DNA of 64,000 nucleotides, taken from contig CAYLXA010000007.1 in assembly GCA_964387845.1 (NCBI GenBank), positions 32,001 to 96,000 of the forward strand. Direction: 5' to 3'. Shown piece after piece: positions 47,378 through 50,046 of this stretch. The number at the start of each line of letters is the position of its first letter. Positions within the stretch are counted from its first letter, which is position 1. Source of the stretch: an uncultured bacterium (lineage in GTDB: Bacteria > Omnitrophota > Omnitrophia > Omnitrophales > Abzuiibacteriaceae). The translations under genes and the position numbers were made by a program. The notes under the pieces were generated by a model that did no database searches, was not told where the DNA came from, and saw nothing but the letters and a program-made list of their open reading frames with translations.

Positions 47378-47962
47378 CTAGTTTGATTCGCGCAATTTGC
47401 GCAGCTCTGCCCCGAATTGTGTGAATTCCGAGATTTCCTTGGGGCTGAGAGGGTTAATGGACGGCGCGGACCGCTCGCGATCTTGCGATCCGGACACTTC
47501 CTGGGCCGATATTGACGGATTTGAGTGTTTGTGAAAGTCCCGCACCAAAATAATATCCCGGTCGGCACTTCTCGAAATTGAAACATGATAAAGCTTGCAA
47601 TCGAGCTTTAAGAAGCCGAGTTTGGAAGTAAAAGATTCATGAAACTGGGCACCAAATAAATGAACGCCGATTTCTGAATGTCCTCCGTTGTGGCCGTTGC
47701 CGGATTTCGAAGCTCCGAGCCCGGAAAGGGTTTGCAAAAGATCGAGAATAAAATTTTGGTCAATCATTTGATGACTTAGCGCAAAGACTGACTGTGCCTT
47801 GCCGCAAGTATGGAGCTGGGCTGCGATATTCTGAGCCGGGAACGGAAGGTATGCAATAAACCGGCTCTCGGGAAGAACGAATTGAACAAGCTGACTTAGA
47901 ATGCCGTGCGCTTGAGATTCGCTCTCGGAGCGCGGCTGCCAATGCGTGTTGATTGGATTCAT
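47378..47962 (-). CDS. hypothetical protein (partner 2 of the ParA-CBM48 locus)
   Basis: 194 aa. No recognisable family. Start overlaps the upstream gene's stop by 4 nt (translational coupling). Confidence 0.35.
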   Translation of the reverse strand: MNPINTHWQPRSESESQAHGILSQLVQFVLPESRFIAYLPFPAQNIAAQLHTCGKAQSVFALSHQMIDQNFILDLLQTLSGLGASKSGNGHNGGHSEIGVHLFGAQFHESFTSKLGFLKLDCKLYHVSISRSADRDIILVRDFHKHSNPSISAQEVSGSQDRERSAPSINPLSPKEISEFTQFGAELRKLRESN

Positions 47963-48780
47963 AGCGAATGATGCAGTGAGTCTTGGCGCAACATTCGCGC
48001 CAATATCTTTTTCGACGGCTCCCAGAGTGACACGGTTTCCGGCCCGCCCAGAAAAAGATCCTCGTTAATACGGAGGTCGCTTCCCTCCATCCAGCCCATG
48101 AAACTAATTTCATGCGACATAAATTTGGAAGCGATCCGCGTGAATTTTTCGTATACCAGTTCAGAAATTTTTTCCGATGCCTTGCCGTCAACCAAAAGCA
48201 GAAAATGAAGCGACGGATTCCACTCCAGGCAAGCGCGAAAACTTTGATAGGCCGATACGAGACTGTCGGCTGAATCGGTTTTCACATGCAAAATGACATA
48301 ATCCAAAATTTGAAGCAAATTTTTCTCATATTCGAACATGGAGATAGGATCTATAAAAATTCCCATACTGCCTAAACGTTCGGTGTTTTGTCCCGCCTCG
48401 TGCCGATCAACCGGCTGAAGATGCAGTGCTTCCTGAATCTGAGCATCCGATAGAAACGCCTGCCGCACATTTGGGTGCTGAATACGCGTAATCGATGGCG
48501 AATATTGACCGATGGTCGCTAAATAGAGATCGCCAAATAATTGCCGAAACTTGGTCACAAATAAATGATGCGATAAAAGCTCTTCTTGGGATCCAAATGG
48601 CAGGATGCTCATACATCGAACCATATTTTCACCAGCTGCTCGCGGTGTCAGCAGTGCAGACGAGATCATGGCCGGAATATGCTGCGCAGGCGCGTGCGCA
48701 GAAGCTTCATGAGCCGAAAAAAGAGCCGGCGAAACGTCGTTGAGGCCTCTTTTTAACCTTTTTTCATCTGACATAAACAA
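47959..48780 (-). CDS. hypothetical protein (partner 1 of the ParA-CBM48 locus), possibly a degenerate P-loop-less MinD/FlhG-like fold
   Basis: 273 aa. The C-terminal half (VILHVKTDSADSLVSAYQSFRACLEWNPSLHFLLLVDGKASEK...ISFMGWM) loosely resembles MinD/FlhG switch regions, but there is no Walker A. Confidence 0.4.
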   Translation of the reverse strand: MFMSDEKRLKRGLNDVSPALFSAHEASAHAPAQHIPAMISSALLTPRAAGENMVRCMSILPFGSQEELLSHHLFVTKFRQLFGDLYLATIGQYSPSITRIQHPNVRQAFLSDAQIQEALHLQPVDRHEAGQNTERLGSMGIFIDPISMFEYEKNLLQILDYVILHVKTDSADSLVSAYQSFRACLEWNPSLHFLLLVDGKASEKISELVYEKFTRIASKFMSHEISFMGWMEGSDLRINEDLFLGGPETVSLWEPSKKILARMLRQDSLHHSL

Positions 48781-48801
48781 TCAGCTCCTGTTACTTAAGA
48801 T

Positions 48802-50046
48802 TTATAAAACACGGAGGACAGAATTTACGCCGCCGTAACGATTTTCTTCAAGCTCAGAATGAGTGGGATCCGTCTTCCATTCCCCGTCCACCAAAAATTT
48901 ATACCGGTAGGTGCCGGACGGCATCGAAATCACTTTCTGCCATGAATCCGGCATTCCTTCCGCCTTTGCCATGGCCTCGGGAACCCAGTGATTAAAATCG
49001 CCGGCAATTAATACTTCGCGCGCTTCTTTACTTTCATAGGAAAATAAAATACCGCCCAAAACGGGGCAAGGCGAGCCGGCATTTTGCGTTAATGTTTCAG
49101 TCTCGGATGCCTGTGTTTGCAACGCGGCCTGGCCTTCCGGAGCGCTCGATTCCCCTGCAGCCGGCTCAAGAACAGGCTCCGGCTCAGCCTTCGATAACTC
49201 TGAAAATGTTTCCCGAACCGCTTCGCCGTTGGCAGGTGCGCCCGGCTTTTCTCCGTTCACTTCCTCCGGCGCAATGGCAATGCGGATTCCGCGCTCAATG
49301 ACTTCAATCGCCAAATTCATATAATCCTGAAAACCGGTTGCTTTGCGGTCATAATCCACGATACTTTTTCCGGCAGCAGCCGCTTCTCTGAGCTTAATAT
49401 TTTCGCGGATATGATTCGTGAAGGTTTTTTCCTTGAAATGATGTTTCACCTCACCGAGAACTTCCTGAGCCAGCTTGATTCTCGATTCATAGCGTGTCAC
49501 CAGTGCATGAACTTCGACACTTTTTCCCGTAATTTGGCGGAGTGATTCAATCGTTTCGAATATCTTTGCCAGGCCATGCAATGAAAAAAATGAAGGTTCG
49601 ATCGGAATAATGACTTCGCCGGATGCGCGGAGGGCATTAAAAGTTAAAATGCCCAAATTCGGCGGGCAATCGATAATGACAAACTCGTAATTGGAAGTAA
49701 TCTGATTGAGTTGATTGAGCAGCTTATTTTCTCTGCCCGGCACACCGGCCAGCTCCTGCTCGATAACGCTCAAAACCACATGGGAAGGAACTAGATGAAG
49801 GAAAGTGCTCACGTTTACCAGCGCTTCGGAAATACCGGACGCTTGGTCGGATGATTTCAACAAATCATACGCCGTTCTGCTCAAGGATTCGGCCTTCACG
49901 CCAAGCCCGCAGGTAGCATGGCCTTGCGGATCCAAATCGATCAGCAGAACGCGCTTCTGTACAAATGCCAATGCAGCCGCCAAATTAATCGCGGTGGTGG
50001 TCTTACCGCAGCCACCCTTCTGATTGGCGATGGCGATTACTCTCAT
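48802..50046 (-). CDS. ParA/Soj-type P-loop ATPase fused to a C-terminal AMPK-beta/CBM48-like glycogen-binding domain
   Basis: 414 aa. Deviant Walker A IANQKGGCGKTTTAINLA and a ParA core of ~260 aa. A Pro/Glu/Ala-rich linker follows. Then GGILFSYESKEAREVLIAGDFNHWVP...SGTYRYKFLVDGEWKTDPTHSELEENRYGGVNSVL matches the AMPK1_CBM consensus. Confidence 0.8.
   Translation of the reverse strand: MRVIAIANQKGGCGKTTTAINLAAALAFVQKRVLLIDLDPQGHATCGLGVKAESLSRTAYDLLKSSDQASGISEALVNVSTFLHLVPSHVVLSVIEQELAGVPGRENKLLNQLNQITSNYEFVIIDCPPNLGILTFNALRASGEVIIPIEPSFFSLHGLAKIFETIESLRQITGKSVEVHALVTRYESRIKLAQEVLGEVKHHFKEKTFTNHIRENIKLREAAAAGKSIVDYDRKATGFQDYMNLAIEVIERGIRIAIAPEEVNGEKPGAPANGEAVRETFSELSKAEPEPVLEPAAGESSAPEGQAALQTQASETETLTQNAGSPCPVLGGILFSYESKEAREVLIAGDFNHWVPEAMAKAEGMPDSWQKVISMPSGTYRYKFLVDGEWKTDPTHSELEENRYGGVNSVLRVL

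Follow-up and report, generated by a model that had tools for sequence, protein, structure and literature searches.

ATPases of the ParA/MinD family determine where chromosomes, plasmids, carboxysomes, chemoreceptor arrays and division sites are located, and in the positioning systems known to us cargo specificity is supplied by a separate adaptor. A similar concept is found in PhaM-type tethering, which links polyhydroxybutyrate granules to the nucleoid for partition at division; PhaM is not an ATPase, and its family is unrelated to the proteins described here. We have analyzed a three-gene operon in a 64,000-nucleotide stretch of contig CAYLXA010000007.1 (assembly GCA_964387845.1, an uncultured Omnitrophota bacterium), referred to below as the window. 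Its first gene encodes ParA-CBM, a Soj-type ParA ATPase fused to a carbohydrate-binding module (CBM) of the CBM48 type found in the beta subunit of AMP-activated protein kinase (AMPK), and the two genes downstream encode proteins that we call partner 1 and partner 2. On the evidence set out below we are evenly divided over the proposal, the best supported of those considered, that these proteins constitute a ParA-type system which couples alpha-glucan to the nucleoid through the CBM48 borne by the ATPase, with turnover driven by a ParB-like peptide on the partner complex. We class the ParA/MinD positioning engine as the known part of this system, and the mode of cargo binding, the likely cargo and both types of partner as new. 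Neither a ParA-CBM48 protein nor active ParA-based positioning of glycogen is described in the literature that was searched, in keeping with the view of a preliminary description of this DNA that no such system is established, and ParA and the nucleoid both go unmentioned in a review of prokaryotic alpha-glucan metabolism from 2024.

Among the closest described systems is chromosomal ParABS. The core of ParA-CBM is nearest to chromosomal ParA/Soj (8ray, 1wcv) and keeps both the signature Lys and the equivalent of the Arg that binds non-specific DNA, and the N-terminal peptide of partner 1 fits the ParB motif that binds ParA (PMC12462528). In contrast to ParABS, there is no ParB here (ParB/Srx CTPase domain, helix-turn-helix [HTH]) and no parS-like repeats were detected near the operon; the ATPase itself carries a carbohydrate-binding domain, and its activator would be a pseudo-ParA together with a protein of dead-nuclease fold. 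McdAB, which positions carboxysomes, PpfA/TlpT and ParC/ParP share the logic of a ParA-family ATPase paired with a small, fast-evolving partner that has an N-terminal activating region, the pair distributing a cytoplasmic cargo other than DNA. Their cargo, however, is bound by the adaptor, whereas here the cargo-binding module lies inside the ATPase; moreover, McdA structures match only aa 1–174 of ParA-CBM (~1e-15), and the partners show no homology to McdB. In Myxococcus xanthus PomXYZ (PMC7993993, PMC13170346), a ParA-like ATPase works with two co-encoded partners, one of which activates it through an N-terminal peptide. PomXYZ has no CBM and its output is placement of the FtsZ ring, and we detected no sequence kinship of our partners to PomX or PomY.

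The fusion of a ParA/Soj core carrying a KGGCGKTT Walker A motif to an AMPK-beta/CBM48 domain, which the preliminary description had noticed from the sequence, is real and conserved (Pfam; at least 120 homologs). The 414-aa protein matches AAA_31 over aa 1–177 (1.5e-54, 185 bits; gathering cutoff 27) and CbiA (1.8e-19, 70 bits; cutoff 25.4). Close homologs were sampled as at least 120 protein clusters, the 120 best having 43–96% identity, and all 120 combine ParA domains with PF16561. The deviant Walker A motif, K10-GGCGK15-TT, contains the signature Lys, and KGGCGKTT is present in 113 of the 120; this is the independent figure, because the pattern used for the scan of loci described below included KGGCGKTT and partly sets the invariance of Cys13 among those loci. 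D37, D39 and D126, the Walker A'/B aspartates, are invariant across the homologs examined, and R189, which aligns with a position that we take to be the Soj arginine for non-specific DNA binding, is kept in 71 of 75. These 75 homologs, drawn from the matches listed, served for residue conservation and linker lengths across phyla. With the Walker A motif, the catalytic aspartates and the R189 equivalent all conserved, the core looks active and Soj-like. Among solved structures, the core comes closest to M. xanthus ParA (8ray, 6.4e-54), Thermus thermophilus Soj (1wcv, 2e-47) and Helicobacter pylori Soj (1e-41), and McdA, ParF and MinD structures match far more weakly than Soj. The score against the NCBIfam equivalog ParA_partition is 127.7 bits, under its cutoff of 180, and homologs carry no database annotation beyond 'AAA family ATPase' or 'chromosome partitioning protein'. 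Between core and CBM lies a disordered linker that ranges from 19 to 138 aa across the 75 homologs and is unalignable in the consensus. Coordinates of all features are collected in Table 1.

Table 1. Positions in the window of the ParA-CBM operon, its protein segments and the adjoining Zn-ribbon gene.
Feature	Coordinates	Strand	Evidence
ParA-CBM, 414-aa Soj-type ParA ATPase fused to AMPK-beta-type CBM48	48802..50046	-	Pfam, PDB matches
ATPase core, aa 1-255	49282..50046	-	alignments, Soj structures
Low-complexity Ala/Glu/Pro/Gly linker, ~aa 256-334	49045..49281	-	composition, length variation
CBM48/AMPK-beta glycogen-binding-domain-like module, aa 335-414	48805..49044	-	Pfam, phmmer, alignments
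Partner 1 (273 aa), N-terminal ParB-like ParA-binding peptide (putative) and predicted P-loop-less ParA/MinD-like pseudo-ATPase domain	47959..48780	-	HHalign
Partner 1 N-terminal peptide, aa 7-23, KRLKRGLNDVSPALFSA	48712..48762	-	family conservation, ParB motif fit
Partner 2 (194 aa), predicted catalytically dead PD-(D/E)xK-fold domain (aa 13-142), disordered linker and C-terminal helix	47378..47962	-	
CT398/CdsZ-like coiled-coil Zn-ribbon protein (COG1579 type)	46561..47265	-	Pfam CT398_CC 1.4e-13, Zn_ribbon_9 2.1e-11

The C-terminal module is an AMPK-beta-type domain by several measures. AMPK1_CBM (PF16561) matches aa 340–413 at 3.2e-14 and 53.3 bits, well above its cutoff of 26.8; CBM_48 (PF02922), the other family to which the preliminary description had compared the tail, reaches 18.8 bits and stays below its cutoff of 22.4. 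When the tail was compared with PDB sequences by phmmer, the best match was the AMPK beta1 glycogen-binding domain (1z0n, 8.7e-10); rat and human AMPK beta1/beta2 were closest, followed by plant glucan phosphatases and pullulanase CBM48s. In rat AMPK beta1, W100, K126, W133, L146 and T148 contact sugar, and their mutation abolishes glycogen binding (PMC2642990). The first three correspond to W354, K383 and W390 of ParA-CBM. Both Trp residues are invariant and position 383 is K or R in 72 of the 75 homologs, across phyla; the family also has an additional invariant Trp, W369, and few parts of the protein are as strongly conserved as the tail. The module shares with the AMPK beta-subunit domain its Pfam family, these three residues and attachment to a nucleotide-dependent regulatory enzyme. 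Here, however, the host is a bacterial ATPase and not a kinase scaffold, and glycogen binding is a prediction from the residues that are kept.

Partner 1 and partner 2 follow ParA-CBM on the same strand, separated by 21–27 nt and then a 4-nt ATGA overlap, an arrangement that agrees with the preliminary description, as does the finding that neither protein can be annotated: both lack a match in Pfam, NCBIfam or PADLOC. The open reading frame (ORF) of partner 1 begins with TTG, and identical 271-aa database entries begin at the ATG at 48774, which is probably the true start and would give a protein of 271 aa. Direct sequence searches with partner 1 returned four close relatives and no more, and positional orthologs are present in every related Omnitrophota locus. 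The ParA-CBM, 273-aa and 194-aa trio, whose synteny the preliminary description had treated as decisive, is indeed found in every related Omnitrophota locus examined.

Profile-profile comparisons (HHalign) linked partner 1 to ParA. The window's partner 1 family matched c11, whose ~300-aa members are encoded after ParA-CBM at loci from deltaproteobacteria, Myxococcota and other Omnitrophota (98.1%, E 8e-14, 216 columns), and also the N-terminal half of the Planctomycetota family c8, whose genes encode 470–670 aa (96.5%, E 1e-9). In turn c11 matched the ParA core (95.4%, E 2e-8, 205 columns), and the merged partner 1 family did so at 89.7%, with aa 55–215 of the window protein falling on ParA aa 2–202. 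The 273-aa family alone gave no significant match to the ParA core, so the link is transitive through c11. At the position of the P-loop the window protein has 'ILPFGSQEELLSHH' where ParA has 'IANQKGGCGKTTTA', and some relatives have half kept the loop, e.g. 'ITSGKGVRGKT'. These comparisons support the reading of partner 1 as a P-loop-less ParA/MinD-like pseudo-ATPase, a fold that the preliminary description had suggested for one of the two partners. This assignment comes from HHalign and not from the structure model, because the model has low pLDDT and a Foldseek search with it gave no significant match, only weak local matches to P-loop NTPases and FlhG/FleN.

The N-terminus of partner 1 carries a short conserved peptide with the family consensus (K/R)(K/R)LGRGLxD(I/V)SHxFLS. 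At least 25 loci from many phyla have it at the start of the protein encoded immediately downstream of ParA-CBM. In M. xanthus ParB the ParA-binding motif has been mapped experimentally to residues 11–19, with hydrophobic L11, L15, L18 and I19 and a central R13 that is Lys in about half of ParBs, and a 20-mer ParB peptide is enough to stimulate ParA when DNA is present (PMC12462528). L9, R11, L13 and V16 of the window peptide fit the L-x-R/K-x-L-x-x-L pattern and spacing of this motif. On the side of the ATPase, L131, G132, I133 and F136 of ParA-CBM are the equivalents of L150, G151, L152 and L155 in the ParB-binding pocket of M. xanthus ParA, and the equivalents of pocket residues V116, L187 and L192 differ. 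Because the peptide fits the ParB motif and the pocket is partly matched, we infer that partner 1 is the cognate ATPase activator. The preliminary description had set the granule-binding module built into this ATPase against the separate adaptor usual for ParA ATPases; the system is not adaptor-free, for partner 1 bears a ParB-like ParA-binding peptide conserved across phyla (PMC12462528). The peptide also heads other downstream bodies, which include an HTH_17-like domain (sub-threshold), HTH plus RodZ_C, AAA_22 and, directly, a nuclease-like domain. Examples of the peptide grafted onto unrelated bodies lie at 1614-2969 in locus L060, 9077-9523 in L066, 5536-6462 in L051 and 9088-9789 in L012.

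An exhaustive HMMER search with partner 2 through 1.84 billion representative proteins found nine relatives. The structure model built from the nine-sequence alignment (pLDDT 77.2, pTM 0.65) has an alpha-beta-beta-beta-alpha-beta-alpha-beta-beta core at aa 13–142, within which the alpha-beta-beta-beta-alpha-beta core fold of PD-(D/E)xK nucleases is found, then disorder at aa 147–168 and a C-terminal helix at aa 174–193 with the motif LSxxEIxxF. Strands beta2 and beta3 of the family lack conserved acidic or Lys columns that could provide the catalytic D...(D/E)xK, and the only invariant columns are L115, F117 and E176. As modeled, partner 2 is a catalytically dead PD-(D/E)xK nuclease fold. Its extended family matched the 'second-gene' families of other phyla (87.9%, E 3e-6, 135 columns), and these (c17) matched the C-terminal domain of the long Planctomycetota proteins (92%); a direct HHalign comparison of the 194-aa family with that domain was negative, the link being transitive via c17. 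Since the second-gene families match the C-terminal domain of the long proteins, partners 1 and 2 are, by these profiles, a single polypeptide of 470–670 aa in Planctomycetota. Such fused genes follow ParA-CBM in L010, L021, L027, L031 and L073, and are also represented by P0125–P0129. The fused protein ends right after the nuclease-like domain and is without the LSxxEIxxF helix, which suggests that the helix of stand-alone partner 2 may be an element that binds partner 1.

The distribution of the fusion was studied by scanning GTDB species representatives with the family alignment, which yielded at least 80 loci whose match runs from query residue 1 to ~413 and thus includes the CBM. Named members among the 120 best homologs are Candidatus Omnitrophica/Omnitrophota. 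Among the matches listed, the full-length fusion occurs in Omnitrophota, Planctomycetota (Phycisphaerae, Tepidisphaerales, Sedimentisphaerales, Pirellulales), Myxococcota, Desulfobacterota, 'Deltaproteobacteria', Rokubacteria, Eisenbacteria, Latescibacterota, Margulisbacteria, one spirochaete and one Thiogranum metagenome-assembled genome, a spread over many phyla that gives experimentalists a choice of organisms. A neighbour-joining tree resolves four groups: the window's Omnitrophota clade, with the triad, a Zn-ribbon gene and mraZ; a second Omnitrophota clade with the order porin-GH57-c2-ParA-CBM-DUF4870-c3 and without an adjacent peptide-bearing partner; a mixed clade in which Desulfobacterota, Myxococcota, Rokubacteria and part of the Omnitrophota have peptide-bearing partners; and Planctomycetota, part of them with the fused partner. 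In loci of the second clade (L024, L028, L033-L035, L041, L043, L047, L054, L056) the genes encode, in order, an Alginate_exp porin, GH57, a transmembrane/beta-sandwich protein, ParA-CBM, a DUF4870-like protein, a small protein and DUF134. The small protein combines a Lys-rich N-terminal tail with a barrel like EF-Tu domain 2, and could be the activator of this clade's ATPase.

Glycogen genes were surveyed by probing all genes at the loci with Escherichia coli Glg proteins and confirming hits with Pfam. By count, they adjoin ParA-CBM in four to five independent lineages among the matches listed, and a rough estimate, assuming a handful of such genes in each genome, is that a glycogen gene would lie within ~14 neighbouring genes in only a few per cent of loci by chance. 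The glycogen link drawn in the preliminary description receives independent support from neighbours elsewhere (GH57 branching enzyme, GT5 glycogen-synthase-like protein, GlgB and phosphorylase). The Latescibacterota locus L071 carries, all on one strand, genes for two GT5-type synthases, for a GH57 branching enzyme that has BE_C and for an alpha-glucan phosphorylase. L053 and L018 have the full triad next to GH57 and DUF4912, and L053 also has a GT5-like gene; GlgB is found at 1e-248 beside ParA-CBM in L060. GH57 is present in at least 11 loci of the second Omnitrophota clade, and in L002, from the window's own clade, a GDE_N gene is located 8 kb upstream. The DUF4912 proteins (L053, 8249-9343; L018, 11725-13608) sit between the GH57 and glycogen-synthase-like genes, beside the triad, and DUF4912 may be part of glycogen gene clusters of the GH57 type.

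If the three proteins do couple alpha-glucan to the nucleoid, the following cycle can be envisaged. ATP-bound ParA-CBM dimers would hold the nucleoid non-specifically through a Soj-like surface that includes R189, while the two flexibly tethered CBM48 modules of each dimer would grip glycogen particles or nascent glucan. The N-peptide of partner 1, acting in complex with the dead-nuclease-fold protein partner 2, would enter the ParA dimer interface, stimulate ATP hydrolysis and free the tether. Repeated binding and release could distribute glycogen, and perhaps its enzymes, over the nucleoid, so that each daughter cell would inherit a share of it; the tethering or segregation of granules would be the outcome. 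Such a system would represent a family in which the cargo-binding domain is on the ATPase itself, with glycogen as the likely cargo, and it would add two kinds of ParA partner: a pseudo-ParA with a ParB-like activating peptide and a dead restriction-endonuclease fold.

Several observations weigh against this proposal and lend weight to other explanations. The AMPK L146 equivalent is Y/F in the family and the T148 equivalent is G/T/S, and CBM-type domains can serve as protein-interaction modules. These substitutions, together with the extra Trp at position 369, would be expected if the CBM48-like module had been re-purposed and bound another ligand (a partner protein, for instance, or a glycan or polymer of some other kind), so that some other cargo was positioned. 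The C-terminal helix of partner 2, conserved and free of an assigned binding target, is compatible with this, as is the window itself, which holds polyphosphate (polyP) genes and no homolog of glgA/B/C/P/X anywhere in its 64 kb. The platform Trp pair and the Lys/Arg are nonetheless kept in essentially all members, including clades without an adjacent partner, which speaks against a partner-binding role, and glycogen genes recur beside the fusion in several phyla; we regard re-purposing as unlikely. The position of the operon is a further difficulty: in the window's clade it abuts mraZ-rsmH-ftsL-ftsI and not glycogen genes. It is conceivable that the system is a glycogen-sensing cell-cycle regulator in which the CBM is a sensor or sink, the glycogen load titrates the Soj-like ATPase and its partners, and the output is chromosome organisation or control of the division site. 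The triad and the Zn-ribbon gene lie directly upstream of mraZ-STAS-rsmH-ftsL-ftsI in every locus of the clade (ParA identity 44–96%), and in L001 and L005 the upstream genes yggT, proC, YggS-like and ileS form a neighbourhood associated with division. The nearest match of the ParA core is chromosomal ParA, partner 2 as modeled has the fold of a DNA enzyme, some partner variants have an HTH-like motif or a RodZ_C domain, and the glycogen-binding domain of AMPK is regulatory as well as localising (PMC2642990). However, adjacency to the division and cell-wall (dcw) cluster is confined to one Omnitrophota clade, the other loci lying beside glycogen enzymes or unrelated genes, and Pfam and NCBIfam revealed no FtsZ, MinC or other known division-regulator domain in the partners. 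A regulator of this kind is the main rival to coupling and, in our estimation, a rather doubtful possibility, although not a negligible one.

The nuclease-fold and HTH-like partners hint that the activator could be on DNA and not on glycogen, and a DNA-sited activator is a misfit with the classical ratchet, in which the activator is bound to the cargo. A speculative arrangement, to which we assign a low probability, is that glycogen bodies give the cell a spatial landmark or matrix: ParA-CBM would move back and forth from glycogen to nucleoid, and a DNA-associated pseudo-ParA/dead-nuclease activator would organise the chromosome or the timing or placement of division. If true, this would concern phyla that divide unconventionally, Omnitrophota and Planctomycetota among them, and would be a bacterial analogue of the AMPK-style coupling of energy store and cell cycle. 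Coupling of alpha-glucan to the nucleoid is also weakened by the many ParA-CBM loci without an adjacent partner, which include the GH57-linked clade and Pirellulales, by the form of the glycogen-gene evidence, which is counts set against a rough estimate, and by the AlphaFold2 (AF2) model of partner 1 from nine sequences, which shows an alternating beta/alpha order at low confidence (mean pLDDT 47.7). The Soj-like core and the 'chromosome partitioning protein' labels of homologs would be accounted for by a chromosomal Soj/ParB pair of the usual kind, or by a mobile element's partition or defence module, whose tail was spurious or had been acquired recently; the first of these had been raised in the preliminary description. 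Yet the ParB signatures GERRxRA and GLGRGLxAL are absent from all 86 loci in which they were sought among the matches listed, the downstream proteins have no ParB match in Pfam, the ParA_partition score falls short, and the tail ranks with the best-conserved parts of the protein. The flanks are housekeeping genes in conserved synteny, no PADLOC model matched beyond P-loop and coiled-coil noise, and a scan for centromere-like repeats near the operon gave only two-copy matches at chance level. This evidence all but rules out a plain Soj-ParB pair, a mobile-element partition module or a defence system, and any such origin is extremely improbable.

Downstream of the triad, the next gene encodes a protein in which CT398_CC and Zn_ribbon_9 both score above the Pfam cutoff; against NCBIfam CdsZ it reaches 84 bits, under the cutoff of 275. 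The preliminary description had placed a COG1579 gene next in line. Pfam confirmed the Zn-ribbon gene, but its adjacency is specific to this Omnitrophota clade, where it lies between the triad and mraZ (L001–L005 and L008), and it may be considered a candidate member only. A promoter/terminator scan, whose signals were not above those of shuffled sequences and lend weak support only to the operon structure, placed no terminator-like site between the operon genes and a promoter-like site upstream of the Zn-ribbon gene. Beyond that gene lie mraZ, a STAS gene, rsmH, an ftsL-like gene and ftsI, and this head of the division/cell-wall cluster (42398-46384, minus strand) is unusually short: after ftsI come unrelated RimK/GSH-S (41421-42380, plus strand) and GCS2 genes instead of murE...ftsZ. 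The STAS insertion between mraZ and rsmH is kept in the related Omnitrophota loci L001, L002, L004, L005 and L008.

Elsewhere in the window, genes for PPK1, for a Ppx/GppA phosphatase that has an HD domain and for a kinase of the ROK family stand in a row at 13994-18703 (minus strand) and could form a polyphosphate/glucokinase module. As listed, the ROK and PPX ORFs share ~120 nt, an overlap that probably stems from a start-codon call. These genes had been cited as support for storage polymers; at ~30 kb from the triad they give no specific support. Rfam at gathering thresholds identified two tRNAs and nothing else. At 7443-10336 (minus strand) a gene for a XerC/D-type tyrosine recombinase adjoins the NAD-dependent DNA ligase gene (ligA), a pair that looks like ordinary housekeeping content, without a sign of a mobile element near the triad. 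Two tandem paralogs of ~790 aa at 34653-39567 (minus strand) combine calcineurin-like phosphoesterase and 3-keto-disaccharide-hydrolase (DUF1080-type) domains.

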